Positions 2,307 through 37,067 of a DNA stretch of 64,000 nucleotides are shown here, piece after piece. Numbering within the stretch: position 1 is the stretch's first letter; the number at the start of each line of letters is the position of its first letter. Under the pieces are notes generated by a model. It did not search any database and was not told the origin of the DNA. It saw nothing but the letters and a program-made list of their open reading frames with translations. The position numbers and the translations under genes are program-made. The DNA is taken from assembly GCA_963663405.2 (NCBI GenBank), contig CAXXSM010000012.1, positions 1 through 64,000 of the forward strand, read 5' to 3'. The DNA is from a bacterium. GTDB taxonomy: Bacteria; Hinthialibacterota; Hinthialibacteria; Hinthialibacterales; Hinthialibacteraceae.

Positions 2307-2581
2307 TACGTTGGGACGTATAAAGTCCGTTCCAAGGTATAAACGCAGTAACAACCTTATTTTTTTTATGTTATGGCTGAATGACGGCTTTGGTCCTCGT
2401 GATGGGGTATCTATATTTTTATGTTATTAGCATAAAAAAATGGCCGTTTAGAGATGTACGGAACTAAATTTAATGCTTGCTAAAAGAGAAAATGCGCGAA
2501 CAATGTTCGCCCTTTTATTCTGTATCAAATCGTTTACGAAACTCCCCTCGGGGCATCCCATTATTCTCAGTGAGGAATAGC

Positions 2582-5500
2582 ATGATACACACAAGACGAA
2601 GACGCTGGCTTGGATTATTAATTGGCATTTTATGCTCGATGACTTTATTCGCTGACACCCCACAGCGGGCATGGGGACAGGACGTTATTCCCACCGGTAT
2701 TTCGCCTCTCTCCAGCCGGGTTGCGGTGCTCAGCTTTCCTTTATCCGTCTATCCATTTAATGAACCGAATTCACTCCCCCATTTCCGGCGGCAGGAATTG
2801 GTCCAAGTTACTGTTAAATTTGAAGATCAGTCCCCAGAAGGGCAGAGTCTCAATATCTCCGAAGATTTCCTTCCTCTGGCCGCTTCCGCTCTCTCCAGTG
2901 GAATCGCCCTATTCGGTGAAAGCGGAGCTCAGCCGGATGGATTTAATTACGCGATCGGTGACAGCAATCAAGATACGCCAATCGATTTGTTGGAAAAACC
3001 GACAGTCCGGGCCGCCGATGATGGTTCCAGCAGTTTCTTCGTGACATTGAAAGCGAAAACGGGAACCGAGACCACGCAGTTGAAATATTTTAACGATCAC
3101 CTGCCGGACTTCTACATCGTTGTCCAAACAAGTTTGGATATACTTCAAGGCGACCGGTTTGAAGTCTCCATTCCCGCTAATGGTATACAGATTGAAGATA
3201 TGTACGAGCCGTTAGTGGATAACACACTTTATGATGACGTGTTTCCTGGCGGCGCATTTTACGATCTCAACCCAGTTTTCGCTGAACGGGCGGTGTTTGA
3301 AGGCGATATAGTTCAGATCGTCAGCGTGTATAAAGATGTCGATAACACAAACCGCATCGTCGCCAGTTCGGAACCCACAAGCGTTTTGGGCCTTGATCTC
3401 GTCGGCCGCGAAGATGTCGAATATTTCGTCGAAGAGATCCGGGTCAATTGGATCGGCCTGAATCTCGGAGCCGTTTCCCGCTTGATTGCGAATCTTTCAC
3501 AAGGGGATTACCTCGGTGGTCAGCTTGCGGGTATGGATGCCGCGGCTCCTGGACCAAGCCCACTAGAACAATCAAACTGGTACCCAACCTTCTTTTATAG
3601 CCCTTGGTTCTATAATTTCCCCACCAACGCTGAAACCGGTGAATGGTTGCTTGAAACGCGATTGACGGCTGATGGAGAAGAATATCAATTTCCAATGACC
3701 ATGCCTCTCGATTGGTATGGTTTCCCCCGATACAACTTCTATCTCGGCAGTGATAATGTCAGCACCAATATTATGAATTTTCACGGTTTCCCCGCACGGG
3801 AGGCGTTCGCCGAATCAAGAAATCCAAAAGTGATCGCCTGGGATATTTTTAAAGACTTTAATCCCAGTAAAGCAGGCGGTGTGTTCGCCTATCGGGAATT
3901 AGGTGGAACAAAGGGAAAATACGATCCTAATGTCGACCATTTGATCAAATTGGATCCCAAAAAATTCCGGATTGAACCGTATACAATCTCACCGGATGAA
4001 GTGCAATCCGCCACCTCTCCGTTGCGGCCTATTCTCCGGCGTTTGGTTCCGGGTGTTATCGGTGGTTCCGGCGCCAAGGAAATCGGTCTATTCCTTTTTG
4101 GAGACGATAACTTGGCCACATCATTGATGGGAGTGACAGCGTTGCCTGATCCCGTTCCTGAAGGCCGCCCCCCAATGGGATCGTTGGATTGTTACATGGA
4201 TCCAGACTGTCTCTTCTTTGATTTAATGATCAATGTGTTAAGGCCTTATCTCGGATTAACGGAAGGACAGATCCGGTATCTGTTTGAATATACAGAAGCT
4301 AACGGGCGCACAAACTCATATGAGCTTTTCAATGATGAAATGATTAAAGGATTCACATTTGTCATGCCCGTCGCCCGTGAAAATGCGTTGAGTGATTTGA
4401 AAGTGCCCGCCGCTCGTACCGGGGATGCCGCTGGTCCCGATATTTATATCAGCGTTCAGACCAGTGACAAATTACGGGCGCTTGACTCCTTCATCCCATT
4501 CATTCAGCCGAATGATATTAAAATTGGAACCAATGTTACAAACTTCACTAAGAACGATCCTACAGACGTGAATTCGTTGAAATCCGTATCCAGTATTGGC
4601 GTTGGACGAGCGAACACGGGAACGACCTATTCCCTTATTGGCCGTCCAAAACCCCGCTTCCAATTCCAGGATCTTACACAACCCGGCGAAGGAATCGACG
4701 CCAGCAATAACAACATTCTGTATGACGGCTCCATGAGTTCCCCACCCAAAGCGGTGATCGGTATTGATGTGACGGACTTTGGACAGAATGCGAACTTAGT
4801 GATTAATTATCAATCCATTGATGGTTATCTCTTTGATACATTCATGACCGAAAACACCGTGTTGGGAGATATGCACATTGATTTCCTTCCCGGCCCCAAT
4901 TCTCTCGTTCTGAATCCGGCGATTTTAGGTGTTTTACCTTATCAAGTGGGAGTCGATCTTCCATTCAGTTCCATTATCTCCGACCACAGCATCGCGATTT
5001 ACATGGACGATGACACTCCTCCCGGCGATGGACGCGACACGGACGGAGATGGATTGATCGATGAAGAACTCTACAACTTGATCGATGATGACAGTGATGG
5101 CTTGATCGATGAAGACCTGGGCGATAATACGCCGGCTGGAATCAACGGCGTTCATGATCCCGAAGACCGTTTCCTTCCACGCTATACGGATAATGGCGGT
5201 TTAACCCAGGATTTCAGCATGAGCTATGTATTCCCACCGAACGATCAAACAAAATTCCAAGATTTTATTGATGAAATTCAACCAGTAGACGATCCATTGA
5301 CAATCACGGATGAAGGTCTCATCCCTTACGATATCACCGAAGGAAGCTGGTTCGCGTCACTCGATTTCCGGGCGCTAAGTTATGACAACTATACCATGAG
5401 CCGGGGCTTGATCTTTTCCAGTGGCTCCATTCCTTTCGATCCTACGGCTGGCCCTCCTTATGCGGATCCCATCTACAATCAAGGGATTCCTTATAATATT

Positions 5501-8500
5501 GAAACCTTCACCGGTATGATAGAATTTCTCACAGCGATCCGCGCCCGTGGTTTTGATACCTTCCCGTATTATCCAGACGATCTTTTTGTCGAAGATCCAG
5601 AGACAGGCGACATCATATGGCTCTTAGATTTTGTAGCGAACGCCGATACGGATATTCCTCGAAGAGACGATCCTGATGGTGATCCTCCCCGCACCTGGGC
5701 GCTTTCTTTAGCTGCGGGATTGCGCATCCCCAATCCGGCTCGCGGTTTTGCCCGGATCGGTATGGTGCCCCTCGTCACGGGCGTTACAGGGGATAACGTG
5801 AATGCGCAAGATCCACAGGGCGACAATATTGTTGAGGGGGGCATCAATCAATTCGGTCTGATGATCTCCGTCGCGGAAGCGCAGCAGATCGGTGAGTATG
5901 TTAATACGGTCGTGGATACTTTAACGAACGCGTACGAAACAGCCTATACGACGAAAGAAGATTTCGAAACAGCCGTCGAAGAAGCCATCGCGGCGGCGGA
6001 TGAAGCGAACGCAGAATTGGAGCCAGGCGATGAAGAAGTAGAACCTGAATTCCCAGACCTGCCCGAACCGCAGGAAGTGTCGGTCACAAGACCGGCCAGC
6101 ACATTAGGAATTGAATCATTTCTTGAAACAAACAACGGATTGTACGACACCAATTATCAATATCAGATTCAGCTGCCGGATGAGAATCTCGGTCCCTTGC
6201 GTGGAAACGATTTCTTTGTCGTGCTTCGCGCCGCCGATGAAGCGCGCGTAGGAGAAAGTTTCCGTGTCCGCATCCGATCGGGTGAGCGGAACGCGTTCAT
6301 CACAACAATCGACGATCAAGACGGAACAGTAACGACAATCGACGCGCCGGAAGGTGGAATCGGTTATCAGTCCTTTATTGAGACCAGCTACCGGGAAGAA
6401 TTCCGCAATGTCAGCAAAGCGCAGATCACGACGGAAGAAATCGTTGTGCGCAGCCAAAACGTGGCGCCTTCCCTGCGGTTCACTTCGCCGGGTCCCGGTT
6501 TGAACTTGGCGTCGGATGAATTGGAATTCGTGATTACCTTCACCGCGTCTGATCCCGACAATGTGGCGCAGATTCAACTGTACGTCGACGACGACAGCCT
6601 TGGATTTAACGGCACATTTATTCCAGGAGCCCTATTACGGGAGGGATTTGACACTCAATTTACCTTGGACATGACCAGCATTCCCAACTTCGATCCTCTC
6701 AAAAAATATTACGTTTATGGGCGGATTGATGATAATGTGAATCCCGCGGGGTATTTTTACGCCGGTGGAGCAATCCAAACCCCCGCGTCTGTCAGCGAAG
6801 ATGAAGGTGGTGGTGATAGTATTGTTGTCGTAGATGATCTCGCGAATCCTCTTGATTACATGAAAATGACCCAGGATGGCCGGACATTCAGCCTGGGGAA
6901 CGCTCCTTCCTTCGCCCAAGTGTCATCCGTGACAAGAGTCGTGGATATGGAACTGACGCCAACCGTTTCGGGTGAGATTCTTCTTCTTGCGAATGGCAAC
7001 GTTGTTGGCAATGGAGATACAGGGATCTTCCTGAACTACATGCAGCCGAACGGTGAATTGAGCTTCTCCGATGCGGAAACCGTATTTTACAATTCAACGA
7101 CGGGTGATTTAATCACCGGTCCAACCGATCAGATCTCCATCGAAAGCGCGCGTGACGTCGAAGTTGATTTCGAAGCCGGCGCCATTTACGTACTCGACGG
7201 AGATGGAGATATGCTCTTCCTGGGGAAAGCCAATACTAACCTGCGTCCCGCTGGTCTTGGCATGGACCTCTACCGCGACATGGAGCTCTCACCAGATGGT
7301 AATCATATGTATTTCCTAAGTGGAAACGGGATTCTTTCTACTGCGGGACCCGCCCCAATTGGAGCGTGGAGTAATCTTATCGCTGAGGATAAATATCGCG
7401 ATATGAGCTTAATCGTGGATGGAGCTGCGGTTACCAACATTGTAATCACGGACGATGACGGCAATCTAACCATCCTTGGTTCGAACAACAGTGTTAAAAC
7501 CGCGCTTTCCCAATTGACGATCCCCGATGACATCGAAGCGGGAACTGTCCGGCAAGTCAAAACATTTCCAGATAATAAGTCAATTCTTCTGCTCGTTCAG
7601 GGAAGCGGTAAAGTGACCGTTCTCCATCCAGAATCAATGGAATTAGAAATTCCATCGGATGGATTCGTCTTCGCCGATTCACCCGGACTCGATGACGATC
7701 AGATCGTGGATGTTGAAACAACTTCGATTAATATTCAATCCGTCGTCAAGGCTGTAAATGATATCCTGAAAGGCTTTGAGAACGAGAATGTCGCCCAAAT
7801 TATGGCGTACGTCTCACCCAATTACAAAGATAAGACAGGAGCGGACGCAAAAGCCCTTCAGAAATCATTGGAAGCGTTCTTCGCCTTCTATGAAGTCGAA
7901 AGTTATAGTATATCCCGCTCGAATACAGACTCCTTCACAATAACAACGCAAGGTGATATTGCAACCGCGCAAGTATTGATTGACATCAGCGTCTTCTATC
8001 CACGAATGGAATATCTCATTCCAGACGTTGAATCGTCAGGTCAGACAATCGCTCTTGAAACGATGGGGCAGTTCCTCTTCCAGGGATCCTATGTGCCCTT
8101 TGATCAAACCATCCGGATCCGCGAAGTGTCGGATGGCCGCGCGTGGAGAATACAACTCTGGGAATTGCGCAATTTTGGACGTCAGACACAGGATTTGATT
8201 GATCAACAAGAGGTGACCGAATACGATGATCTTCACTTCCTGATGACACAATCAGAAGCGGATTTGATCTCATATTATCAACCGAAATCCGAATCCGCCG
8301 AAAGTCCAATCTACGTCAGTATTGATGTCAATGAAAACGATCCTTTACAGCCATATAACATCCTCGCCGTAATGGAAGAACTGTTTTACCGGCGTGATTA
8401 CGCGCCACCCGCGTTTGAATTTACGACTTATACAGGAGCCTTCATGGCGGCCGTCGGTTTCGATCAATCAACCTTTAAGCTCCAACGCATGGATGATGGC

Positions 8501-9064
8501 TCATACAAGTTGGTTAGCATGAACTTCCGGCAGCTCATCTCTCAGAACGACCAAGACTTTGGATTGGGAGACACGGGAGGGCAGCAGGAATCGCCACTCA
8601 GCACGTTGGATGGATTGGAAGTGGAAAATCCGTTTGGATTTAGTTTCACTAACCGTGGACCCGTTCTAACCGCTTTTACAGGTGACGCGGATCTCGTCTA
8701 TGCGGCGGATGGTTTGGAAGTCACGTCTTCGCGGGGAGCGATTATGATGCTTCCCGAAGGGACGGATATCAATTCGATCAATCCTTCTACATTCTTCGAT
8801 ACCATTTCACGGGCCGTTGTGAGAACCAATCCATACGATCCCGCGAATCAAGGAGGAGCCGCAGGTGGACAAACTGGATTTTCCGCGTCGATTCCTGACG
8901 GTGGAGGACGGGCTTACTTCATCATCGCCCGGGATGGAAAACATTATGGTTTCATTCAGATTCCCACTTTTAATGGCGCTAGCGATCCGACACAATTAGA
9001 TCCACCGATGATCTATTTCGATTTCCGGTTTGAAGATTCATTCATTCTTCCGTCTGGATTCTAA
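2582..9064 (+). CDS. Giant (about 2,160 aa) acidic secreted/surface protein with repeated modules, Ca-binding-like DxDGDG repeats, Ig-like and beta-propeller-like regions
   Basis: ORF 2477-9064; likely start ATG 2582 gives signal peptide MIHTRRRRWLGLLIGILCSMTLFA; DTDGDGLIDEE/DDDSDGLIDED; RDMEL-type propeller blades. Confidence 0.8.
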   Translation: MIHTRRRRWLGLLIGILCSMTLFADTPQRAWGQDVIPTGISPLSSRVAVLSFPLSVYPFNEPNSLPHFRRQELVQVTVKFEDQSPEGQSLNISEDFLPLAASALSSGIALFGESGAQPDGFNYAIGDSNQDTPIDLLEKPTVRAADDGSSSFFVTLKAKTGTETTQLKYFNDHLPDFYIVVQTSLDILQGDRFEVSIPANGIQIEDMYEPLVDNTLYDDVFPGGAFYDLNPVFAERAVFEGDIVQIVSVYKDVDNTNRIVASSEPTSVLGLDLVGREDVEYFVEEIRVNWIGLNLGAVSRLIANLSQGDYLGGQLAGMDAAAPGPSPLEQSNWYPTFFYSPWFYNFPTNAETGEWLLETRLTADGEEYQFPMTMPLDWYGFPRYNFYLGSDNVSTNIMNFHGFPAREAFAESRNPKVIAWDIFKDFNPSKAGGVFAYRELGGTKGKYDPNVDHLIKLDPKKFRIEPYTISPDEVQSATSPLRPILRRLVPGVIGGSGAKEIGLFLFGDDNLATSLMGVTALPDPVPEGRPPMGSLDCYMDPDCLFFDLMINVLRPYLGLTEGQIRYLFEYTEANGRTNSYELFNDEMIKGFTFVMPVARENALSDLKVPAARTGDAAGPDIYISVQTSDKLRALDSFIPFIQPNDIKIGTNVTNFTKNDPTDVNSLKSVSSIGVGRANTGTTYSLIGRPKPRFQFQDLTQPGEGIDASNNNILYDGSMSSPPKAVIGIDVTDFGQNANLVINYQSIDGYLFDTFMTENTVLGDMHIDFLPGPNSLVLNPAILGVLPYQVGVDLPFSSIISDHSIAIYMDDDTPPGDGRDTDGDGLIDEELYNLIDDDSDGLIDEDLGDNTPAGINGVHDPEDRFLPRYTDNGGLTQDFSMSYVFPPNDQTKFQDFIDEIQPVDDPLTITDEGLIPYDITEGSWFASLDFRALSYDNYTMSRGLIFSSGSIPFDPTAGPPYADPIYNQGIPYNIETFTGMIEFLTAIRARGFDTFPYYPDDLFVEDPETGDIIWLLDFVANADTDIPRRDDPDGDPPRTWALSLAAGLRIPNPARGFARIGMVPLVTGVTGDNVNAQDPQGDNIVEGGINQFGLMISVAEAQQIGEYVNTVVDTLTNAYETAYTTKEDFETAVEEAIAAADEANAELEPGDEEVEPEFPDLPEPQEVSVTRPASTLGIESFLETNNGLYDTNYQYQIQLPDENLGPLRGNDFFVVLRAADEARVGESFRVRIRSGERNAFITTIDDQDGTVTTIDAPEGGIGYQSFIETSYREEFRNVSKAQITTEEIVVRSQNVAPSLRFTSPGPGLNLASDELEFVITFTASDPDNVAQIQLYVDDDSLGFNGTFIPGALLREGFDTQFTLDMTSIPNFDPLKKYYVYGRIDDNVNPAGYFYAGGAIQTPASVSEDEGGGDSIVVVDDLANPLDYMKMTQDGRTFSLGNAPSFAQVSSVTRVVDMELTPTVSGEILLLANGNVVGNGDTGIFLNYMQPNGELSFSDAETVFYNSTTGDLITGPTDQISIESARDVEVDFEAGAIYVLDGDGDMLFLGKANTNLRPAGLGMDLYRDMELSPDGNHMYFLSGNGILSTAGPAPIGAWSNLIAEDKYRDMSLIVDGAAVTNIVITDDDGNLTILGSNNSVKTALSQLTIPDDIEAGTVRQVKTFPDNKSILLLVQGSGKVTVLHPESMELEIPSDGFVFADSPGLDDDQIVDVETTSINIQSVVKAVNDILKGFENENVAQIMAYVSPNYKDKTGADAKALQKSLEAFFAFYEVESYSISRSNTDSFTITTQGDIATAQVLIDISVFYPRMEYLIPDVESSGQTIALETMGQFLFQGSYVPFDQTIRIREVSDGRAWRIQLWELRNFGRQTQDLIDQQEVTEYDDLHFLMTQSEADLISYYQPKSESAESPIYVSIDVNENDPLQPYNILAVMEELFYRRDYAPPAFEFTTYTGAFMAAVGFDQSTFKLQRMDDGSYKLVSMNFRQLISQNDQDFGLGDTGGQQESPLSTLDGLEVENPFGFSFTNRGPVLTAFTGDADLVYAADGLEVTSSRGAIMMLPEGTDINSINPSTFFDTISRAVVRTNPYDPANQGGAAGGQTGFSASIPDGGGRAYFIIARDGKHYGFIQIPTFNGASDPTQLDPPMIYFDFRFEDSFILPSGF

Positions 9065-11471: not shown

Positions 11472-11934
11472 TTCAGTTGAATTTACGCCATGAATCGATA
11501 AACCTGCGCGGAGTCCATAAAAACAAGAAAGCAACATGGAAAGCGATTCTTTTCTGACGATTTTGAATGAATTGAATATACTTACTATACCGTGTGCGCC
11601 TTCTTCGGATAGCTCATACGGTGGCGTTTTGTAATTCCCAACTCAACAATCTATTTTTGTATTCTGTGCTGTGACTCCGTCACAGCATGATATGTGGGAA
11701 CCGTCTTGTAAATGATTGAATGATACCGCGCCGTTCCTGGATAGATGCAATTCCGTTCCAAGGAAGCGCCGCGCGTATCGTTGATTTTCTCGATCGGTTA
11801 TAGAATGACAGTAAGTCTTTTCCAGGTAAATCTGGTCATTCATCGTTCTGAATCCTTTTTACGCCTGGGAAGGATTTACCGTAATCCTGCTATCATATTT
11901 TTTTTGTATTTTCAACTTAAAAGGAAAAGGCGAA

Positions 11935-13218
11935 ATGACGACGGAAAAAGAAATCAATTTATCGGCCGTTTTTGAAGTGATGTGGGAACGAGGGAAACGG
12001 ATTTTCATTTTTACGCTGGTCTGTATGGTCCTGGGAGCGCTGGCGTCGCTGCTGATTAAAAACCGCTACGCCTCAACCGCGCAATTGATAATGATTAAAT
12101 CGAAACTGGGTGAAAACACATTGAAAAATCCACCCGTTCAAATGGGAACGTTTTCGCATATGATTAAACGCCGCGGAGTTCTGCAGGAAGCGATTACTCA
12201 GTTTGAACTGGATAAAAAACCATATAAGATGAAATACATCGATGATTTAGCCGAGCGGGTGAACGTATATCTTTTTACCGACAGCGCGTTATTTGATATT
12301 TACGTCGAAATGGAAGACATGAATTTAGCGGCGAATATCGCCAACTTCCTTGCCCAAAAAGCGATCGAAGCAAGTTCACAGATGGCGGCGTATGAAAAAA
12401 TTACCAGCGCCAGCCATATTGAGATGGAAGTGGAAGCCTTGAATACGCAATTAAACGGTTTTCAGGATGTCTATCTCAATACACTGGTCACAAACATAAA
12501 ACCGGTGCTGCAGAAGGAATTGGATACCAATATGACCATTCTCGCCACGCTGCGGCAGGAAAAAGAGACGATCGATGGCGGGATTGTCCAAATAGAAAAT
12601 CAAATCGCGAATTACGATCGATTATTTTCCGCAACGGACACGGATTTTACAAAGTTTGTGATTACGCGCAAAAGCATTGTGAACGATCCTCTTGTATTTG
12701 AAGCCGTGCGGGAAAAAGCGAATATCAACCTGGAAGAGATCAGTGACCTCACTTTTCTCAGTGAAGACCTGGATGGAGGCTACGCGACTCTCCGGTTGGA
12801 ATACACGAAATTAAAAGTCGATCTGGAAGCGCAGAAAAAACTATCAGACTATAAAGACCAGCGAATCAAACAATTAGTAAAAACAGTCGCAGAACAACAA
12901 AAGGCCTTTTCGACAATGGATGTCAATGAAATGGTCGCCAAAGCCAATTTCGACCGGGAACTGGAAATCTTCGGTGGAGTGGATAAAGAGATGGGCTGGG
13001 TTGGAACTACAATCGCATCCGAGCGGCAGGATTTATGGTTGTTTGAAAAAGCGATCCCCGATCCAAAAAAAGTCTACCCCAGGCGGTCTCTGATCGTCGC
13101 GTTTATCGGTATCATGGCCTTTTTATTCTCTTTTTTATATTTCCTTCTCCGGGATCTTTACGGCCTCGTTGGATTTTCGATCTTTGAAGATGTCAAGAAT
13201 GAAGAATCAAAATCCTAG
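11935..13218 (+). CDS. Wzz/GumC-family polysaccharide co-polymerase-like protein (no kinase domain)
   Basis: EINL..VF..MW N-terminus, two TM helices flanking a coiled coil, AIPDPKKVYPRR motif before the C-terminal TM. Confidence 0.8.
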   Translation: MTTEKEINLSAVFEVMWERGKRIFIFTLVCMVLGALASLLIKNRYASTAQLIMIKSKLGENTLKNPPVQMGTFSHMIKRRGVLQEAITQFELDKKPYKMKYIDDLAERVNVYLFTDSALFDIYVEMEDMNLAANIANFLAQKAIEASSQMAAYEKITSASHIEMEVEALNTQLNGFQDVYLNTLVTNIKPVLQKELDTNMTILATLRQEKETIDGGIVQIENQIANYDRLFSATDTDFTKFVITRKSIVNDPLVFEAVREKANINLEEISDLTFLSEDLDGGYATLRLEYTKLKVDLEAQKKLSDYKDQRIKQLVKTVAEQQKAFSTMDVNEMVAKANFDRELEIFGGVDKEMGWVGTTIASERQDLWLFEKAIPDPKKVYPRRSLIVAFIGIMAFLFSFLYFLLRDLYGLVGFSIFEDVKNEESKS

Positions 13219-22316: not shown

Positions 22317-23213
22317 TCATTCTGGATTCCACTTTTTCTGGGTGATTCTCTCATACGCTTCGATGTATCGCTTACGCGTGTTTTCAACAATATCATCCGT
22401 TAAATCGGGAGGGGGTGGATTCCGGTCCCAGTTGACGCTATTCAGATAATCACGAACGAATTGTTTATCCAACGCTTCCTGTGGTTGACCAGGGGTGTAG
22501 GTATCCTCCAGCCAGAAGCGGGAGGAATCGGGAGTCAGGATCTCATCAATCAAAATAATCTCATCGTCCAGAAAACCGAATTCGAACTTCGTGTCGGCGA
22601 TGATCACGCCTCGTTCTCGAGCGGCCTTAGCCGCGCTTTTATAAAGTTCCAAACTGCGATCCCTCAATTCATCCGCCTCCCAGCCCCCCACCTGCAGAAC
22701 GGCTTCTTCAAAGGATATATTGATATCATGACCATCATGACTTTTCGTGGCGGGTGTAAAGATCGGTTCCGGCAATTCATCCGACTCTTTCAAGCCGGAT
22801 GGCAGCAGGATCCCGCATACGGTTTGATCTTTCTGATACTCCACCCAAGCCGAACCGGATAGATATCCACGTACGACACACTCAATCAATACAGGTTCGG
22901 CCTTCTTAGTCAACATTGTACGATGGTAGAGCTGGTCCGGATGAGACCGGAACGGTTCGGGTAAATCCTCTACATCAGTTGAAATGAGATGGTTGGGCTT
23001 GGCTTCGGGAATCGTATCCATCCAATGCTTCGTCATTTGCGTGAGGATGGCGCCTTTATCGGGAATCCCTTGAGGAAGAATGCTGTCGTAAGCGCTGATA
23101 CGATCGGTCGCCACAAGAAGAAGACGGTCGCCAAGGTCAAAAATATCTCGCACTTTTCCTGTACGTATCGGGGAGACACCAGGTATCGTTATAGTGGTCA
23201 ATGCTGTGTTCAT
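22317..23213 (-). CDS. purC: Phosphoribosylaminoimidazole-succinocarboxamide synthase
   Basis: GKVRDIF, ATDRISAYD, ECVVRGYLSGS, IADTKFEFG, DEILTPDSSRFW, DKQFVRDYL. Confidence 0.97.
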   Translation of the reverse strand: MNTALTTITIPGVSPIRTGKVRDIFDLGDRLLLVATDRISAYDSILPQGIPDKGAILTQMTKHWMDTIPEAKPNHLISTDVEDLPEPFRSHPDQLYHRTMLTKKAEPVLIECVVRGYLSGSAWVEYQKDQTVCGILLPSGLKESDELPEPIFTPATKSHDGHDINISFEEAVLQVGGWEADELRDRSLELYKSAAKAARERGVIIADTKFEFGFLDDEIILIDEILTPDSSRFWLEDTYTPGQPQEALDKQFVRDYLNSVNWDRNPPPPDLTDDIVENTRKRYIEAYERITQKKWNPE

Positions 23214-23306
23214 GATTCATCCCTTTCTTTCCCGTCAGGAATCAAAGTAAACAATGATTTTATCGTAAACATCCACAGAACTGAAGCATTGTAACTGCAT
23301 TTCCAT

Positions 23307-24305
23307 TTATACTTTTCGAAGAGATTCCGCCGCTTTCTCCGGAGGCATGGTGTTGATATAAAACCCGGTTCCCCACTCGAATCCAGCGGCTTTCGTAATT
23401 TTAGGCGCGATTTCCAAACGCCAATGATAATACGGGAATTCATCGCCCGGCGCCCGGAGAGGGGACGTGTGCAGCATAAAATTATAGGCCGGATCGTTTA
23501 AATGCGTTTTAATCCGGAATAATACATCCTTCAGCAGAGACGCGAAAGAAACAATCTTGTGTTCTTCAATGGTCTCGAAATGACTCTGGTGCTGTTTGGG
23601 AAGAATCCATGTTTCGTAAGCGGCTCGTGACGCATAAGGCGCGATCGCGATAAAATCCTCATTTTCCACAATCACCCGGATTCCACTCTTCCGTTCCTGC
23701 TGGATAATCTCGCAAAAGACACAGCGGGAATTCTTGGTAAAAAACGCGCCCGCGCCCGCGAGTTCTTCTTTCAACCGTTTCGGGACAATCGGCAGGCCGA
23801 CAATTTGCGAATGAGGATGATTGAGCGACGCCCCCGCTTCCCTACCGTGGTTCTTGAAGATCAGAATATAATGCAGGCGGGTATCGTCACGAAGCGCCGC
23901 CATACGCTCCTTGTAGGCGTGAACGATCCGCTCGACTTGTGGCAGATCAAAATCCGCGATTGAAAGGTCATGTTCCGGCGACTCAATAACAACCTCATGC
24001 GCGCCGGTCCCATTCATTCGGACATAGATTCCATCCTCTTCCGGAGCCGGATCTTTCCCAGGCGCAAGCGCTGGGTATTTATTGGGCACAACGCGGATCA
24101 GCCATTGTTTATTTTGCCATCCCCCATTCGTTGATGGAAAGACCAGGATTGGTTCCAACGTTTTATCTTCCGCGCCGGGACAGAACGGACATAATCCCTG
24201 AATGGTCTTCTGCTCCTGTTGAATAAAATCCATCGGACGGTCCCCCCGCTCAGCGGCGATGATCACCCAACGGCCGATCACAGGATCTTTTCTCAATTCC
24301 GGCAT
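23307..24305 (-). CDS. galT: Galactose-1-phosphate uridylyltransferase
   Basis: MPELRKDP start, CPFCPG, RVVPNKYPAL, AGASLNHPHSQ active-site motif, AGFEWGTG. Confidence 0.93.
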   Translation of the reverse strand: MPELRKDPVIGRWVIIAAERGDRPMDFIQQEQKTIQGLCPFCPGAEDKTLEPILVFPSTNGGWQNKQWLIRVVPNKYPALAPGKDPAPEEDGIYVRMNGTGAHEVVIESPEHDLSIADFDLPQVERIVHAYKERMAALRDDTRLHYILIFKNHGREAGASLNHPHSQIVGLPIVPKRLKEELAGAGAFFTKNSRCVFCEIIQQERKSGIRVIVENEDFIAIAPYASRAAYETWILPKQHQSHFETIEEHKIVSFASLLKDVLFRIKTHLNDPAYNFMLHTSPLRAPGDEFPYYHWRLEIAPKITKAAGFEWGTGFYINTMPPEKAAESLRKV

Positions 24306-24415
24306 CCACGGCTCCTTCCAACACGCCAAGTAAAATAGGGATAGAATCTTTTAACAGTGTATTCAATTCTTGAGCGATTCCTAGGATTCCTTGGGCCGTT
24401 CGTTTGAAAATGAAT

Positions 24416-24901: not shown

Positions 24902-25654
24902 CTACTTTTTCCTCGCCAACACCACTAGCGACAAACCAATCGGCAATCCTCTCCCAATCACAAATGGCAGTTCACTTGTAAAAAGCCGGATCAGAAGCCG
25001 GTTGATGCGTGGATGGTGATGCATATTGTCGGGACGCGCGCGGTGGTTCTTTTCTTTGATGAACCAGCGCCGGATACGGCGGTACCAACGCCAGATAAAA
25101 GCCGCGGGGAGTAATACAGCGTTCATGAACGAGTGGTGAACAAGTTCAAAGCCATTCGCTTCAATCATGATTAAAAGGCGTTTGGGCAGGTACCGGCGCT
25201 TATGCTCATTGATCTCGTCGTGTTCCCCCCAGAGAGATGGGTAGACCGGCACAGTAACGAGCAAACACCCTCCTGGTTTGCAGACACGGGCGATCTCCTG
25301 AAGCGCCTTCTCGTCGTCTTCGATATGCTCTAACACGTCCAACGCGGTCACAAGGTCAAATAACCCATCTTCGTATGGCAAGTCCAAGAGACTCGCCTCT
25401 TGGACGTTTCTCTCATTCCGCAGGTGACAGAATCGGATCGCTTCCGGAGAATTGTCAACACCGGTCACGGCGCCGAATTCAGCGAGCCAGGCGAGATTGA
25501 CGCCTGTGCCGCAGCCCGCGTCGAGTATCTTCCAGCCAGACGTGTCAGTAGGGAGAACCTTTTGAAGCAAAGCGAATAAAATTTTCCGCCGGCTGACAAA
25601 CCACCAGTTGCCGCTCTCGAATTCGTAATAATCTGAATAGTAATCTTCCCGCAC
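24902..25654 (-). CDS. Class I SAM-dependent methyltransferase (surface-glycan associated type)
   Basis: ILDAGCGTG, FDLVTALDVLEHIEDD, KPGG, LWGEHDEINEHKRRY. Confidence 0.9.
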   Translation of the reverse strand: MREDYYSDYYEFESGNWWFVSRRKILFALLQKVLPTDTSGWKILDAGCGTGVNLAWLAEFGAVTGVDNSPEAIRFCHLRNERNVQEASLLDLPYEDGLFDLVTALDVLEHIEDDEKALQEIARVCKPGGCLLVTVPVYPSLWGEHDEINEHKRRYLPKRLLIMIEANGFELVHHSFMNAVLLPAAFIWRWYRRIRRWFIKEKNHRARPDNMHHHPRINRLLIRLFTSELPFVIGRGLPIGLSLVVLARKK

Positions 25655-25853: not shown

Positions 25854-26999
25854 TTATTTCATGATCGATAATCCCCGCAGGGGCGAGGTGGATTCGCGCA
25901 ATAAAAGCCGCTGTGGGACTTTGATGATTCGTTCTTCACTCGGTTCCGTGTCCTGTTTTTTCGCTTGAATTTCTTTCAGAAGAACGCGGAAGAGGGTATC
26001 GACGAGTTCAGCCGTAGCCGGCGCTACTGTCGTCAACCGCGGATGAGAATAATGACCCGCTAAATTGTCTCCATGACCGATTAGGGCCATATCTTCGGGA
26101 ATGCGGATTCCGATGGAACTCAGCCCTCTGGCCGCTTCCAGCGCCGTCGCGTCATCGAACGCCAATATCGCCGTCGGCGCTTCAGCACCGCTGAACGCTT
26201 GTTTGATACGATCGGTATGAACCGGCCAATCTTTGAATATAGAAGGCTTCATGACCCACTCATCCGGATTCCAGAGACCACGGTCTTTCATTTCATCTTT
26301 GTAAGCGTTCCAACGTTCGATCACGGGACCGAAATCGCATTCGCTTCCCTTGGGACCGATATAAGCGACGCGGTTGTGTCCGAGTTCAAACAAATAATCC
26401 AGCGCGCTTTTCGTTCCTTCGTAGTAATCGCTTTGGACACAAAGCAAAGGCGGATCGAAACGCTCGGTTACTTTTTCCGTAATGAGTACAGGGATTTTGT
26501 TCTTCCCGAAAACAGAGGCGACTCCGACATGCCGTTTCGGCGCGATCGGCGTCCAGACCAACGCGTCAATGCTTTTTTCAAACAAAAGGCGGGATTGATT
26601 CAGTTCAACTTCTTCATCATCCGGCGCGTACATCGCGATGACTTGGATATGGTGAGTGTGCGCTTCATTGATGAATTCAACCGCGAATTCTTGAGAATAT
26701 GCGTTTGACAGTGGAAGGAGCAGCCCGATAGTGATTTGTTCGTTGATGTTTTCAGTGATCGAGTCGGAACGTTTGACAACAAACGTACCACTCCCCTGGC
26801 GAGAGAGCAGCCAGCCTTGCCGTTCCAGTTCGGAAACAGCGCGGGTTACAGTGCTCAAACTTATATCGAACTCTCTCATCAATTGTTCGCGGGTGGGAAG
26901 AGGATCGCCAGGTTTTAATTTTCCTTCTTCAATCTGTTCCCTCAACTTAATCATGAGTTGGACGTATTTAGGAATACGCAATGATTCAAAATTGTTCAC
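25854..26999 (-). CDS. GntR-HTH/LacI-type effector-domain transcriptional regulator (AraR-like)
   Basis: PKYVQL...LKPGDPLPT...SLSTVTRAVSELERQGWLLSRQGSGTFV plus LGHNRVAYI, PTAILAFDD, IPEDMALIGHGD, LLLREST. Confidence 0.9.
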   Translation of the reverse strand: MNNFESLRIPKYVQLMIKLREQIEEGKLKPGDPLPTREQLMREFDISLSTVTRAVSELERQGWLLSRQGSGTFVVKRSDSITENINEQITIGLLLPLSNAYSQEFAVEFINEAHTHHIQVIAMYAPDDEEVELNQSRLLFEKSIDALVWTPIAPKRHVGVASVFGKNKIPVLITEKVTERFDPPLLCVQSDYYEGTKSALDYLFELGHNRVAYIGPKGSECDFGPVIERWNAYKDEMKDRGLWNPDEWVMKPSIFKDWPVHTDRIKQAFSGAEAPTAILAFDDATALEAARGLSSIGIRIPEDMALIGHGDNLAGHYSHPRLTTVAPATAELVDTLFRVLLKEIQAKKQDTEPSEERIIKVPQRLLLRESTSPLRGLSIMK

Positions 27000-30440: not shown

Positions 30441-33400
30441 TTATCGCATTTGAGCTTTGACAATTCGGTGATTGCGGGAATCAGCGATATAGAGCGTTCC
30501 ATCCTGCGCAACGGCGATCCCTTTCGGGCCATTCAAATATCCCATTCCCGCTCCGGTTCCGCCACCCAGAGATACATTTTGACCTAGTGGATCGAAACGA
30601 TGAATCATTCCCGCGGTTGAATCTGTGACATAAACATTCCCCGCGCGATCCACCGCTACATAGGGTTCAATCTGTAGATATCCATACTCGCCTTCCCCTT
30701 TCCAGCCGAGGACTTTTCTCTCTTTTACCGCTTGTCCTTTTTTATTGAATGCGACAACATGCTGGTTCACAACACCGCAGACATAAATCAATCCATCAGG
30801 GGCGGCTGTGACACCGACAGGTTCTTGGATTTCGTTTTTCCCGATCGTTCCTCCAAAAGATCCATCCGGTTTATACCAGGCGATTTGGTGATGGCCGGTA
30901 TCCGCCACATACAGCGTTCCATCCATACCGACTCCTAACCCTCGTGGATTGTAAAACGGCTGCTTATCCGCGTTGACAATAGGAGTGAGGGGATTCCCGT
31001 CTTTATCAAACCGCAGAATCCGCCCCGTGCCGGCCCAGGTGTCTGTGACGAAGACCGTACCATCTGGACCTACGCCGATCCCTCCATTTGGGTTTCCATA
31101 TTGATTGATTGTCAACTGCCCCGGTCCGGAGCCTTTGGAACCGAATGATTTAATAAAATTCAGGTCCTTGTCAAACACCTGGATACGCGCGTTGCCCGAA
31201 TCCAGAACATAGACGGTACTCTCATCCGGCGACAACGCGACGCCTCGCGGATCGTTGAATTCTCCATTCCTGACGCCAAACCGGCCGATGGTTTTCAATT
31301 GGCGCAACGGGCTCGAGGTTTTTTCATAGCCTTTCGCGACGATCAGTTCGCCTTCCGTTTCTAAAAGCGGTTGACGCACATAGAAGTTAATGTCTTCTGA
31401 ACCGGGTGGATACCAGACATCCCGATACAAGAGGTATTTCCACAGCGCGAGCCAAGCTTGCTGCTGCTGTTTGCTTCTTCGAAAATCGTTAAATGGAAAG
31501 ACGCGTTGCGAAGCGAGTTCCTTATTCGGATTCTTCGTATCGCCGGGACGGGGCCACCAGACACGGTGCTTTACTCGCCGTTTCGTATACTTGCCCTGGC
31601 ACCAGACCTTCATCCGCGATTCAAATTCTGTATTGACTAACAAATATGGAATATTCGGTGGTGGAAGCGCGATCGTCTCCTCCCCTTGCGGGTGGGTTCT
31701 GTAATGCCGCAGGTACCACGAGTACGGCCAGTTAGCTTCTCCCCACAGAAAAGCGATCGTTTTTCGAGGCTTTTTTTGAGGATTTATGGGCATATAATCG
31801 AGCCCCAAAATTTGGGCGCCGCGTTCGATTTCTTTCACGATATCCGTCGCGGAATGATCGGTTTGGGTATATACAATGACTTCCCTTGGATTGTCATTGT
31901 TGTATACATTTAAAAAGATATTGGTGCGCGCTTCATAGAGAACGAAAAGACCCACGAAAACAGCGAACACGCTCCGGATCGCCCCCGGTTTCAGCTGCGC
32001 CCAAACATCACCAATAAACACTCCCGCCAGCAAGAGCAACGGCAGTACCTGATGTACGAGAAGCCAAGGCACTTTCTCTTCCAGCAGCGCATAGATCAAT
32101 AATGAGCATACGCTCCAATAAATAAGAAAAATCCGGAGACCATTCGGAAGCAGACGATTGGCTGTTTCTTCCTCGGGCGCCGCCTGTTTTTCCGTTTCCG
32201 GTGGGATAAATGAAAACGAGGCGATCAACTTCTTCCCGAACACGATCGCCATAGCGAAACAGAGACAGATCAACCAGATCAGAACCGTCTGGCTGCTTTG
32301 CGGGGAATGGAGAAGAATCACGTGAATGTATAAATACACAGTGCCCAAAAACGCCAGCATGAATCCAGCGAAATTGAACCCTTTTAATTTCTTGATCAAG
32401 TAAACGAAAAAAGCGATGACAGAGAAGACAACCCCGATGACTTCATAAATAATAATCCGGGGAATGTAATAATCCGACGGGCCGGGAATCCGTGGATCGC
32501 CCTGCTGGCCCATCCAGTAGAGCAGATAATTGATCACCCCATCCTTCATCCCCTCCGGATGGTGACCGAGGGCGGTGAAGAGAAGGGAATAGACCGCCAG
32601 CGCGAGAAGTATACACGTCAGAAAAATGATGTTTCCCTGACAGAAGCGTTTAAAAAATGAAACTTCTTTCTGCGGTGGAGAAAGCCAGGCGCGCAGAATT
32701 TCGATCCCAATAAAGATCACCAGAAAAACGCCAAATCCCGTGATGATCCACGCGGGGATAATCCACGAATGAGCGCTTACATATTGGTTCCAGCTGTTTT
32801 CCAGAACGCCCATGGAAAAAGAGCCTTGGCCGCTCTGTGTTTTAAGACGCAACGCGGTTTCCAGAAAGACGGGCCGGTGCGTAACGAAGGCGACGAGGGA
32901 AAAGGCGAAGAAAGAAAACACGGCGTACAACGCCGTCAGTTTCACGAATGGAGCCCGATCGACAAAGATATCACAAAGCGCTTTTCGTCGGTCTTCTTTC
33001 GGAAATTTAAAATAGTAATAGACGCCATATAACACGGCGAATGAACCAAAGAAAAAGCCCGTCATGTACGAATTTTCCTTGCACGTATACATCAGCGCAA
33101 GAAAGAATGTCATCCAGATTAAATCCCCGCTGCGCCTCGATCGCAGATATTCCAACGCGAAGACGAGGATCCCCATCGCCATGGCCGCCATATAAATATC
33201 GTTCCGGGCGAATCGGGAAAAATAGGTCAACACAGGCGAAGCGGCGACAAGAAGAAGCGCGGTAAACGCGCCTTCCTTTCCAATCCACGGTTTTAACCGC
33301 CAGACAAAATATAACAGCAGAATCCCAAACGAAACAAAGGGCAACCGGGCGGTAAAATCATTGTCTCCGAACAGAAGAAAGAAAAGAGCGCCGTAATGAT

Positions 33401-33611
33401 AGAGAAACGGACCGTGATAAGTAGGATCGTAAGCCTTAAACTCTTCTCCGGTGTACATTCTATAGGAATAATAAGCATGTATCGATTCATCATGATGGAT
33501 CGCCATCCGGTCCAATTCGTAGAGCCGCATGAATACGCCGAAAAAAACAACCGCGGCCACGCATAGACCAAATCGAGTTATTTGGATTTGATTCTGAGAT
33601 CGAGAGGGCAT
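30441..33611 (-). CDS. TIGR03663/Agl23-like GT-C membrane protein fused to NHL-repeat propeller
   Basis: HHDESIHAYYS, YDPTYHGPFLYH, YFSRFARND, KEN, EKVPWL, VYTQT, WPYSWYLR; C-terminal NHL repeats (FNDPRGVA, YVADTGHHQI, LNGPKGIAV..DG.LYIADSRNHRI). Confidence 0.85.
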   Translation of the reverse strand: MPSRSQNQIQITRFGLCVAAVVFFGVFMRLYELDRMAIHHDESIHAYYSYRMYTGEEFKAYDPTYHGPFLYHYGALFFLLFGDNDFTARLPFVSFGILLLYFVWRLKPWIGKEGAFTALLLVAASPVLTYFSRFARNDIYMAAMAMGILVFALEYLRSRRSGDLIWMTFFLALMYTCKENSYMTGFFFGSFAVLYGVYYYFKFPKEDRRKALCDIFVDRAPFVKLTALYAVFSFFAFSLVAFVTHRPVFLETALRLKTQSGQGSFSMGVLENSWNQYVSAHSWIIPAWIITGFGVFLVIFIGIEILRAWLSPPQKEVSFFKRFCQGNIIFLTCILLALAVYSLLFTALGHHPEGMKDGVINYLLYWMGQQGDPRIPGPSDYYIPRIIIYEVIGVVFSVIAFFVYLIKKLKGFNFAGFMLAFLGTVYLYIHVILLHSPQSSQTVLIWLICLCFAMAIVFGKKLIASFSFIPPETEKQAAPEEETANRLLPNGLRIFLIYWSVCSLLIYALLEEKVPWLLVHQVLPLLLLAGVFIGDVWAQLKPGAIRSVFAVFVGLFVLYEARTNIFLNVYNNDNPREVIVYTQTDHSATDIVKEIERGAQILGLDYMPINPQKKPRKTIAFLWGEANWPYSWYLRHYRTHPQGEETIALPPPNIPYLLVNTEFESRMKVWCQGKYTKRRVKHRVWWPRPGDTKNPNKELASQRVFPFNDFRRSKQQQQAWLALWKYLLYRDVWYPPGSEDINFYVRQPLLETEGELIVAKGYEKTSSPLRQLKTIGRFGVRNGEFNDPRGVALSPDESTVYVLDSGNARIQVFDKDLNFIKSFGSKGSGPGQLTINQYGNPNGGIGVGPDGTVFVTDTWAGTGRILRFDKDGNPLTPIVNADKQPFYNPRGLGVGMDGTLYVADTGHHQIAWYKPDGSFGGTIGKNEIQEPVGVTAAPDGLIYVCGVVNQHVVAFNKKGQAVKERKVLGWKGEGEYGYLQIEPYVAVDRAGNVYVTDSTAGMIHRFDPLGQNVSLGGGTGAGMGYLNGPKGIAVAQDGTLYIADSRNHRIVKAQMR

Positions 33612-33807
33612 TGGATAAAAAATGTCTCCTTATACAGGTTTTTAGACACAATAGCACAAACTAAGAGAATTGTTACGGAGTGGGGGCATTTTGTCTAGAG
33701 CGTAATCCCTTGTAAAGACAATCATTTTATGACTTTCTTTTTATTCATTTTCAATGTAAAATAAGGATATTCTATTATTTTGTCCGGTTTTTTTTTGGAG
33801 GTGTTTG

Positions 33808-34272
33808 ATGGTCCAAGAGCGTGTTTGTGTTGTTTGTGGGGGACCCATGAACAAAATTACTGGTGATATCTGCTGCAAGGAAGAAGATCAATATCTCCTA
33901 CTCGCCTGCAAAGGACACTTGCGTGACTTTGAAGACCGGCAATGTTCGATGGACGATGTCGTTGAATTGCTCTATGACGATCTCGCTGAATTCCTTGAAA
34001 AAAAGAATATGTCTATAGAGGATTACGATTACACCGGCGTTCTCAGTGAACTGGAACGGCGGATCTTTCGTTGGGTGAATAAAGAGATGATCAATTTCCG
34101 TCAAATCGGCGGCATCGGTTTTTGCTCGATCTGTGGCTGCGCGGTACTGGCGGGATGGACCAAATGCACAAGCTGCTCGGATTCAAGCGGAATGAGAGAT
34201 ATATTGCAGCAAAGCGCGGGAATGTCAGCCCCAAAACAAGCGCCGAGAAGAGGGATGCATTTCAAAAGATAA
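33808..34272 (+). CDS. Cys-rich (zinc-ribbon) hypothetical protein, YvyF-like architecture
   Basis: GGAGG RBS; N-terminal CVVCG..CC; C-terminal CSICG...CTSC; ends RGMHFKR. Confidence 0.6.
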   Translation: MVQERVCVVCGGPMNKITGDICCKEEDQYLLLACKGHLRDFEDRQCSMDDVVELLYDDLAEFLEKKNMSIEDYDYTGVLSELERRIFRWVNKEMINFRQIGGIGFCSICGCAVLAGWTKCTSCSDSSGMRDILQQSAGMSAPKQAPRRGMHFKR

Positions 34273-34526
34273 AAAATATTCGTCGAATAATACATTAGAT
34301 ATATAGAAATATAATTTTCCTACACTGACATATTAAATTTATCTCTCCTCTAAAAACCAAAAAACTCTATCCCTGTCTCAATAGCGTTCAAATAAAAAAT
34401 ATTATTTTTAGACAATTCAACGCTCTTCCATTTCACTTTTCAATCTCTCTATCTCCTCTTTTTTGCGGCCTTTCTCTGTATTGGTAGAAGAGAATCCCGG
34501 AAGATTCCACCCATTTGGAGGAGATC

Positions 34527-35837
34527 ATGTTTCACCGATTTCGGCAATGGCTGAAGAAAAAAAGCGCCGTCCCCACACCCCACGTTCGCTCATTCGCTTG
34601 GATCCCAGAGAAAAAAACGGATCTGCCCATTCACCCAAAATCCCATCCATTCTCTGAAAATCCCCTTTCGCTGTGGAATGACACGGATGATTATTTGGCG
34701 CCGGCGGGGATTGATTTCCGAATCTTGTTCCCCATTCTGCGCCGGTTGCGGGATTATATCCCTGATGTGTCCGCCGGTGTGTGGGCGTGGGTTCGGTTGT
34801 GCTCCACTCCCCAATCGTTCTCCCTCTCCGGCGCCAGCGAAGCGGACCAAGCCCATGCGCGGAGTCTCTTATCCAATCTGGATAATCGGATTTTCGAATT
34901 CCAACATGAACGCGACCGGGGTGTGGAGGCGCTTGTTCAATGTTTCTTTCTCTCCGTCTTTACCTACGGCAGTTTTTGTGGGGAAGTGGTTCTACACGAA
35001 TCGCGGAAGCGGATTGACCGGTTTATCGTCATCGATCCAGCGGTGATTCGTTTCAAATTGGATCCATCCACAAGAGAACTGCGCCCCTATCAAATTTTGA
35101 ATGACAGCTCACTCATTCCTCTGAATCCCGCTTCGTTTTATTATTTCGGATTGGATACGGATGGTTTGTCGCCGTATGGGCGATCTCCATTGCTGGCGTT
35201 GCCCTTTGTGGTGAAACTGCAGCAACAGATGTTGGCCGATATGGCGAAGGCGCAGCACAACGCCGGTTATCCAGCCGTTCATTTCCGCCTTCAAACGCCG
35301 GAACGAATGACCAGCGAAACGCCTAATGAGTATTACGAACGAGTATTGAACGAGATTCAAACCACACGCAATGAAATCGAACGGAAAAAATCTGACAGCA
35401 ATTTCGTCAGTTTTGACAACATGGATGTGCGCTACATTGGCCCATCCGGTAATACGCTGCAATGGTCTGAAAGCATGCAGGCCATTGGAGAGCAGGTGGT
35501 CTCCGCGCTTCACTTGGCGCCGTTTATGATCGGCCGCAATTGGGGAACGACCCAATCCTGGGGAACGGCGCAGTATCAGCTGTTGACCAACAACGCGAAA
35601 ACCGTTCAAGAAGGCGCGAAACGGCTGGCCGAATGGCTGCGGAATCTCGAACTGATTCTACAAGGCTCCCCCGTCAAGGTCACTCATCACTTCGCCCCCC
35701 ATCACCACCTGGACGCGGCCGATCGCGCGAGCGCCTTCAAAACTTCCGCCGAAACATTGGTGATGTTGAACGAGAAAGGTTTCATCGATTCCCAAGCGGT
35801 GAAACAGCGCATGGAAAATTTATTGCGATTTATGTAA
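34527..35837 (+). CDS. Phage portal-like protein (solitary)
   Basis: GGAG RBS, ATG 34527; LRRLRD..PDVSA..W...RL; YGSFCGEVV; IDPAVIRF; SPYGRSPLLA..FVVK; QVVSAL...PFMIG...GTT; length about 436 aa as expected for portals. Confidence 0.65.
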   Translation: MFHRFRQWLKKKSAVPTPHVRSFAWIPEKKTDLPIHPKSHPFSENPLSLWNDTDDYLAPAGIDFRILFPILRRLRDYIPDVSAGVWAWVRLCSTPQSFSLSGASEADQAHARSLLSNLDNRIFEFQHERDRGVEALVQCFFLSVFTYGSFCGEVVLHESRKRIDRFIVIDPAVIRFKLDPSTRELRPYQILNDSSLIPLNPASFYYFGLDTDGLSPYGRSPLLALPFVVKLQQQMLADMAKAQHNAGYPAVHFRLQTPERMTSETPNEYYERVLNEIQTTRNEIERKKSDSNFVSFDNMDVRYIGPSGNTLQWSESMQAIGEQVVSALHLAPFMIGRNWGTTQSWGTAQYQLLTNNAKTVQEGAKRLAEWLRNLELILQGSPVKVTHHFAPHHHLDAADRASAFKTSAETLVMLNEKGFIDSQAVKQRMENLLRFM

Positions 35838-36155: not shown

Positions 36156-37067
36156 ATGAATGAAAAAATCCACAAATCCGGTTTCGCCGCTCTCATCGGC
36201 CGCCCCAACGCGGGGAAATCTACGCTGTTGAATCAGATTCTCGGCACAAAATTGATCGCCGTCACTCCCCGCCCGCAGACCACCCGCAACCGGATTTTTG
36301 GCATCTACGATCGCGAAGACACGCAGATCGTCTTCCAGGACACCCCCGGTTTGCTGGAACCAAAAGACGCGCTGCACCAGTTCATGACGCGGGAGGCGGA
36401 ACGGGCGTTGAAGGATGCGGATGTGGCCGTCTGGTTAATCGATTCGATTAAAGGCGTCACCGCCCGTGAACGCGGGATCGCAACCAATGTGCTATCCAAT
36501 TTGAGTATCCCCTTATTCGCCGCTTTCAATAAAATCGATAAAATCAATCCGGATCAAATCCCCGCATTAGAAAAAGAACTTGAAGGATTTCAATTCGATC
36601 CACCCCCTACGAAAATTTTCATCTCCGCCTTGCTGGGGCACGGCGTAGGGAATTTATTGCGGCAAGTCACCGAATGTCTGCAAGAAGGACCGAAATTCTA
36701 TCCCCCCGATCAATTAAGCGACCGCACGCAACGTTTCTTCGTGGAAGAGATTGTCCGCGAAAAAGCCTTCCTCCAACTCCGCCAGGAACTCCCCTATTCA
36801 CTCGCGGTCCGGGTGGAAGAGATGAAAGAGCGGGAAAACGGTCTCACCGCGATCCGCGCCGTCCTTTTTGTGGAACGAGAAACCCAAAAAAGAATCGTCT
36901 TAGGCAAAAAAGGCGCGGCGATCAAACATATCGGAATCGAGGCACGCAAAGAAATCGAAACGATGCTGGACGGCAAAGTGTTTCTCGAATTATGGGTGAA
37001 AGTGAGTGAACGCTGGCGGAAAAAAGAAGACCGCCTCCGTGAATTCGGCTATACCGAAACCACCTAA
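36156..37067 (+). CDS. era: GTPase Era
   Basis: GRPNAGKSTLLN, PQTTR, DTPG, NKID, EIVREK...QELPY, KH domain VFLELWVKV. Confidence 0.97.
   Translation: MNEKIHKSGFAALIGRPNAGKSTLLNQILGTKLIAVTPRPQTTRNRIFGIYDREDTQIVFQDTPGLLEPKDALHQFMTREAERALKDADVAVWLIDSIKGVTARERGIATNVLSNLSIPLFAAFNKIDKINPDQIPALEKELEGFQFDPPPTKIFISALLGHGVGNLLRQVTECLQEGPKFYPPDQLSDRTQRFFVEEIVREKAFLQLRQELPYSLAVRVEEMKERENGLTAIRAVLFVERETQKRIVLGKKGAAIKHIGIEARKEIETMLDGKVFLELWVKVSERWRKKEDRLREFGYTETT

Follow-up and report, generated by a model that had tools for sequence, protein, structure and literature searches.

What is a gene for a phage portal protein doing alone among the housekeeping genes of a bacterial chromosome? The question is raised by a locus in an uncultured bacterium of the family Hinthialibacteraceae, lying within a stretch of 64,000 nucleotides (assembly GCA_963663405.2, contig CAXXSM010000012.1, positions 1 to 64,000 of the forward strand) that is referred to here, at its full length, as the window. 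A portal is a ring at one vertex of the capsid, where it serves as the channel for DNA packaging. The portal gene of the window (34527..35837, plus strand) encodes 436 amino acids followed by a stop codon; it is recognised by profile and fold and has single-copy orthologues phylum-wide. In the explanation that appears quite probable, it is one part of an old, vertically inherited, phage-derived particle system, which has been kept across this uncultured phylum and is organised in the manner of a gene transfer agent (GTA).

The open reading frame (ORF) of the portal gene (34515/34527..35837, plus strand) is uninterrupted and contains zero stops. Two starts are conceivable, a TTG at 34515 and an ATG at 34527. 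The ATG is taken to be the start because the TTG falls within the ribosome-binding site GGAGGAG (34517..34523, plus strand), read in the sequence four bases 5' of ATG 34527, and because relatives keep the GGAGG-ATG spacing, the arrangement GGAGG-N-ATG recurring among them. The GC content is 0.49–0.53 along the gene, compared with 0.45–0.51 in its coding neighbours. A reading of this DNA made from its letters alone, called here the sequence-only reading, had described an intact ORF with a strong ribosome-binding site and host-like composition, lying between a zinc-ribbon gene (called cysteine-rich here) and era, and this description holds.

The same reading had called the gene portal-like, and this too was confirmed. 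The PHROG 3753 profile, annotated 'portal protein', matches residues 52–426 of the window protein with an E value of 2.5e-39. The Pfam profile Phage_portal gives E 3e-7 at 30.4 bits, below its gathering score of 39.1 bits, Portal_Mu matches at E 0.0047, and a search of NCBIfam with the window portal returned zero matches. An AlphaFold2 model of the protein (pLDDT 85.9, pTM 0.77) was compared with the PDB by Foldseek, a check of the fold that the sequence-only reading had proposed: all of the top 33 matches listed were portal, neck or connector entries with a probability of 1.00, the best E value was 4.7e-13, and 138 matches had E values of 1e-3 or lower. Among the matches are the portals of phage 812, HFTV1, T4, G20c, lambda and HK97 and that of the gene transfer agent RcGTA (6tba, E 1.5e-9; 6toa). 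A profile of 67 homologues searched against PDB sequences found no significant portal, the best entry being 9c39 at E 0.71. The nearest of 50,697 phage records is Bacillus phage vB_BcM_CUBc25, at 27.9% identity, and just 12 records match. Judged by profile and predicted fold, the window gene encodes a genuine phage portal protein; from homology only, it would be expected to form a 12-fold portal ring at the capsid vertex.

The history of the gene was followed through 41 genomes, comprising the window genome (8.44 Mb in 170 contigs, 82% complete), relatives in families labelled f1 (n=19), f2 (n=4), f3 (n=2), f4 (n=1), f5 (n=7) and f6 (n=1), and members of other phyla (n=6); the phylum itself is represented by 35 species genomes. 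A portal match is present in 31/41 genomes (f1 18/19, f2 4/4, f5 7/7, f6 1/1, f3 0/2, f4 0/1, other phyla 0/6), which within the phylum amounts to 31 of 35. Almost every match is a single copy, full-length and free of stops, the window genome has one copy, and orthologues from 24 relatives are 431–440 amino acids long. Metagenome proteins 71% and 69% identical to the window portal also exist.

The portal diverges between genomes at the pace of the housekeeping GTPase gene that happens to lie beside it in the window, era. In example relatives, identities to the window proteins (portal/Era, in per cent) are 66/66, 63/62, 58/60, 55/51, 46/44 and 43/43, and across 190 pairs of 20 genomes the pairwise identities of the two proteins correlate with r 0.94 (means 53.8% versus 55.9%). 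In the portal tree f1, f2 and f5 are each monophyletic, with SH-aLRT support of 99–100. The portal and Era trees have 10 of 17 splits in common, and their total lengths are 12.0 and 11.3, respectively. Ratios of non-synonymous to synonymous substitution (dN/dS, NG86 method), given for close pairs, more distant ones being saturated at synonymous sites, are 0.112, 0.113, 0.053 and 0.046 for the portal in four pairs, and 0.126, 0.064 and 0.044 for Era in three of those four. For the window portal the terminal branch measures 0.33 (median 0.28), and the portal/Era ratio of end branches, 1.21, falls in a range of 0.33–3.38. The portal is vertically inherited under strong purifying selection and is not a prophage leftover. 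Of the checks proposed by the sequence-only reading, a dN/dS well below 1 was borne out (0.05–0.11) and a tree congruent with the host gained support; a third, that orthologues sit next to era, did not hold in general, as era adjoins the portal in just 3 of 21 loci. Its mundane alternative, a last surviving prophage gene under relaxed selection, is contradicted by these dN/dS values and by the ordinary terminal branch.

If the portal has been kept for so long, it might be asked where its usual partners are. At the loci of f5 and f6 a collinear cluster of head and tail-tip genes begins with the portal. The portal is followed by a gene of 220–270 amino acids without matches (scaffold-like), a decoration or cement-like protein matching PHROG 4588, and a major capsid protein that matches PHROG 3922 (E 3.7e-82) and also Pfam Phage_capsid_4. 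After the capsid gene come a small gene, a protein whose C-terminal domain is SPP1_Dit and one that matches PHROG 16951; more genes follow, and the last encodes a hub-like protein of 365–400 amino acids. The nearest ESM Atlas clusters of the last are of the minor-tail or baseplate-hub kind, of XkdQ/YqbQ and Mu gp44/gpP type, which is to be taken as a lead only. No terminase lies beside the f5/f6 cluster.

The capsid protein is also found well beyond these two families. Its profile detects one copy each in 18/19 f1, 4/4 f2, 6/7 f5 and 1/1 f6 genomes, and in 0/2 f3, 0/1 f4 and 0/6 others. In all 17 capsid loci fetched from f1, f2 and f6 the order is conserved as decoration protein, capsid protein, small gene, Dit-like protein, PHROG 16951 protein and next gene, and this group is called here the capsid module. 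None of the 16 f1/f2 loci has the portal next to the module; one genome (G005) carries both on one contig, 13 kb apart. Among f1 genomes the mean identity is 71% for the capsid protein, 64% for Era and 60% for the portal. One further gene of the capsid module, M10 (L098:14702-15319 and its equivalents), has a weak holin-like match (PHROG 689, E 0.0027), and a lysis function is possible for it on the strength of that match.

A large terminase (TerL) of the Terminase_6N type forms a second orthologous set, with 45–72% identity among eight genomes and invariant GRGAGK, DE and HDD positions (Walker A, Walker B and nuclease). It is present in 13/19 f1 genomes, plus fragments in G005 (short ones, on contigs C119 and C36), and in 4/4 f2 genomes; it is duplicated in G007 (C12, C14) and in G024 (C16, C74). 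The gene is solitary, with no conserved neighbour in 10 loci. Two other candidates were rejected. The Terminase_6N matches of f5 are not one orthologous set, as those of G029 and G031 are 68% identical and the others 26–33%, and TerL_ATPase (PF03354) was discarded as the terminase of the system since it occurs in just 1/41 genomes.

The hub-like family is present in 17/19 f1, 4/4 f2, 7/7 f5 and 1/1 f6 genomes and in 0/9 other genomes, and is likewise solitary in f1 and f2. The f3 and f4 genomes, one of which is 95% complete in 9 contigs, are without all four parts, and this joint absence looks like the joint loss of one functional unit. In the order to which the window genome belongs, the kit is found in four places: a solitary portal, the capsid module, a solitary large terminase and a solitary tail-hub-like gene. 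The portal stands beside head genes in f5 and f6, and beside neither terminase nor head genes in the window or the f1/f2 loci. The sequence-only reading had suggested a search for equally isolated terminase or capsid genes elsewhere in the genome; such genes were found at other loci in relatives, but none of this system in the window genome itself.

The scattered parts are connected by a shared upstream motif. A position weight matrix was built from 41 regions upstream of portal, capsid-module and terminase genes, with the site of the window portal as 1 of the 41 training rows. The layout is roughly a C-rich stretch, TTTTGCGG, 12–14 bases and TAnT(A/G)GTAGAG, and most of the 41 regions have their site at -53 to -87 relative to the start codon. 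In the window this promoter-like motif of the scattered particle regulon occupies 34455..34498 on the plus strand, about 35 nucleotides 5' of the start codon, with the core TGCGG at 34464-34468 and TAGAAGAG at 34485-34492. When the window genome (about 16.9 million positions) was scanned with the matrix, the portal site, itself a training row, came out top at 21.9; the next score was 16.3, and just 4 sites reached 14. The 13-mer TGCGGCCTTTCTC from the portal motif has 3 copies in the assembly, all in motif context: one before the portal, one before a broken hub gene and one on contig C149.

A strict form of the pattern gave exactly 3 matches in G010, a nearly closed genome of 7.3 Mb in 8 contigs, and these stand before the portal gene, the capsid module and the TerL gene, respectively; a reversed control pattern gave 0 matches there. 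In G007 the strict pattern finds the capsid-module site alone. In 4 of 6 relatives the hub-like gene, too, has a motif-like site before it. The motif does not coincide with a sigma-70 consensus promoter, and counts of sigma-70 promoters and terminators around the gene are at chance level. The motif is not a general promoter. From its sharing among these genes, the dispersed loci are predicted to be under common regulation.

The ancestral layout was probably a contiguous cluster as in the two sister families f5 and f6. In the family of the window genome and in a sister family the kit has been scattered: portal, large terminase and hub-like gene are lone genes, and the capsid module is elsewhere. 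Every part has before it a copy of the same rare, promoter-like motif, through which the parts could still be switched on together. The portal would then assemble as a dodecamer within a capsid made of the conserved capsid protein, the terminase would fill this capsid with DNA, and particles would be released. The organisation is called GTA-like because the genes are domesticated, vertically inherited, spread over several loci and, it appears, commonly controlled. By likeness to GTAs, the particles may carry DNA between cells. The sequence-only reading had offered a split, host-maintained GTA-like system as its first option, and that option gains support from descent, selection, near-identical phyletic patterns and the motif shared in relatives.

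Several observations weigh against it. No full-length TerL was found in any of the eight f5/f6 genomes, nor any TerL in the f1 genomes G013 (95% complete) and G015 (99%), both of which keep the portal and the capsid module. The modules contained nothing recognisable as a tail tube, tape measure or sheath. The strict motif pattern matches nothing in G019 and G014, and in G012 it finds the capsid-module site together with one chance match inside an epimerase gene; these failures imply that the motif is degenerate between genera. The window genome itself yielded no complete particle gene set in its 82% complete assembly: searches by tblastn, custom hidden Markov models (HMMs) and two alignments found no capsid module, TerL or other cluster family. 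Its hub-like gene (contig C16, about 11850-13012, with a motif copy at 12969-13012 on the minus strand) comprises about 370 codons in three frames, carries at least three frameshifts and an in-frame stop, the latter not an error of the single-base frame-break kind, and is probably a pseudogene; those relatives in which a full-length copy was listed have it intact. With the capsid module and TerL missing and the hub gene broken, the portal is without demonstrated partners in the window genome.

Two further features of this genome concern the motif and the genes that flank the module in relatives. The third copy of the motif (C149:180882-180925, minus strand) has the same 13-mer core as the portal site; downstream of it there is no ORF and no remnant of TerL, capsid module or hub gene, and the synteny of its flanks is uninformative. 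It may be the relic of a deleted locus or the driver of a small transcript. In the window, purC and galT (22317-24329, minus strand) adjoin a methyltransferase gene (24902-25654) and that of a GntR/LacI-type regulator (25854-26999). In five relatives' loci galT and purC flank the capsid module, directly after it, and no remnant of the module was found beside them in the window. There is almost an even chance that the unassembled part of the genome, about 18%, contains the capsid module and the terminase, and a slightly better than even one that this is a lineage losing the machine while keeping the portal.

The only capsids that profile searches found in the window genome are HK97-type, on contigs C100 and C4. 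On C100 (15001-35000, L047) there are a short PHROG 12 portal, a major head protein, a tape-measure fragment, a replication initiator and a reverse transcriptase; on C4 (1-15000, L048) the capsid gene stands at the contig edge and is followed by small ORFs and by ORFs of 771 and 1274 amino acids. Both were rejected as members of the kit, as they are prophage-like regions, C100 having its own portal, and neither matches the capsid HMM of the system.

If the partners were indeed lost, the portal ring may have been kept by selection for another job, independent of any capsid. The missing capsid module and TerL, and the absence of a module remnant beside galT and purC, would fit this account, as would the contrast between a hub gene of about 370 codons so damaged and a portal gene of 436 codons with no frameshift or stop. 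On the assumption that the two genes have been neutral together, a Poisson estimate puts the chance of a lesion-free portal at roughly 1%. The portal motif is moreover intact, as the top-scoring site in the genome, and the terminal branch of the gene shows no acceleration. Both absences could, however, be gaps in the assembly, at 82% completeness; loss of the module seems rare, because it is missing in just 1 of 23 other f1/f2 genomes, itself 86% complete; the adjacency of galT to the module is not universal in relatives; and no alternative partner or function has been identified. Such an exaptation is therefore considered unlikely, though it would, if true, be a first example of a stand-alone domesticated portal outliving its virus-like machine. 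Similar observations in this genome could suggest that the portal is simply the last gene of a dying element, neutral and intact by chance, as its partner genes are absent or broken in the assembly. This is very improbable: the length of the protein fits that of its orthologues, its terminal branch and portal/Era ratio are ordinary, its ribosome-binding site and promoter motif have survived, and the broken hub gene shows how decay looks in the same genome.

Other accounts leave the machine in place and dispute its purpose, or see a purpose in the portal by itself. That the system makes a killer particle like the defective phage PBSX, or some other phage-derived machine not meant for gene transfer, is suggested by the XkdQ/YqbQ and Mu gp44/gpP types nearest to the hub-like protein (again as a lead), by the Dit-like protein and the weak holin-like match, and by the want of a terminase orthologue in f5 and f6. 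The f1/f2 TerL, with intact ATPase and nuclease motifs and in the same motif set, points instead to DNA packaging, and the modules showed no recognisable sheath or tube. A killer particle seems decidedly unlikely, although the present results do not distinguish killing from transfer. The sequence-only reading had also raised the idea of a dominant-negative anti-phage decoy, which draws on the solitary position alone. PADLOC assigned 0 families to the portal, its two unannotated neighbours, and a TerL and a hub-like protein taken from relatives; with 27.9% identity to the nearest portal of an isolated phage the protein would be a poor mimic; and the apparent co-regulation with capsid and terminase genes in relatives explains the portal without a decoy, which is hardly credible. 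A scattered, GTA-like particle system remains the preferred reading.

The surroundings of the portal gene are those of a host chromosome. On its 5' side is an ORF for a cysteine-rich protein of 155 amino acids (33805-34272, plus strand) without a Pfam match, and on its 3' side is era (36156-37067; MMR_HSR1 and KH_2). Farther upstream are a protein of 1056 amino acids, in which a PMT_2 glycosyltransferase is fused to NHL repeats (30441-33611, minus strand), a response-regulator GGDEF protein and a 2-hydroxyacid dehydrogenase. The PMT_2-NHL gene is the most stable neighbour of the portal, accompanying it in 8/21 loci of two families. The cysteine-rich gene adjoins the portal in 7/22 loci, counting 6 of the 21 and in addition the G005 locus, and has a paralogue elsewhere in the window genome (C143:11478-11915). 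It was considered as a partner of the portal and rejected, because it occurs in either orientation, is the companion of an ABC-transporter block and is separated from the portal by the motif; it is probably a mere syntenic neighbour. An ORF of 2195 amino acids lies at 2477-9064 on the plus strand of the window.

The sequence-only reading had recognised no other phage genes in the 64 kb. Whole-genome searches with HK97 capsid (PF05065), TerL_ATPase (PF03354) and Terminase_6N (PF03237) profiles gave zero matches on the window's contig, their sole matches being the capsids of C100 and C4, and a tRNA scan of the window found none, which strengthens the claim for these genes; no integrase was seen among the 14 of the larger ORFs that were scanned against Pfam. 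Host-gene neighbours, the lack of a tRNA in the window and fixation of the gene in the phylum do not describe a prophage.

This system was not found described in full-text searches of the literature, which did not extend to the supplementary tables of surveys of GTAs. To our knowledge, domesticated phage particles such as GTAs come from just a few lineages; here, nearly all members of a small uncultured phylum carry a domesticated particle gene set. Its capsid protein is conserved more strongly than Era within f1, and its parts are scattered to single-gene loci yet tied by one motif, which yields a testable regulon and a route to such systems from a solitary 'phage' gene. The phylum also presents a natural series, from contiguous cluster through scattered kit to apparent partial loss, in which the absorption of a virus by host genomes could be studied. 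Should the window genome truly be without capsid and terminase, it would also be the place to test whether a portal can lead an independent existence.

Among known systems, the window protein resembles the portals of tailed phages (PHROG 3753, Phage_portal/Portal_Mu) in profile, fold and typical length, but its gene is chromosomal, single-copy, fixed in the phylum and away from packaging genes. FpGTA of Faecalibacterium prausnitzii (PMC12946183) is reportedly likewise a case of domesticated phage-particle genes outside the Alphaproteobacteria, although in a different phylum and with unrelated genes. The closest parallel in organisation may be drawn with RcGTA and the alphaproteobacterial GTAs, which share with the present system phage-derived particle genes, vertical inheritance and purifying selection. 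The RcGTA portal (6tba and 6toa) has the same fold as the window portal, but the two are just 14% identical in structural alignment, which makes this an independent domestication, from a different phage. No tube or tape measure was recognised here. RcGTA genes lie at several chromosomal loci under common control, while its portal is within the main head-tail cluster, beside the terminase. In the present system both of these genes form loci of a single gene, and the scattering goes further.

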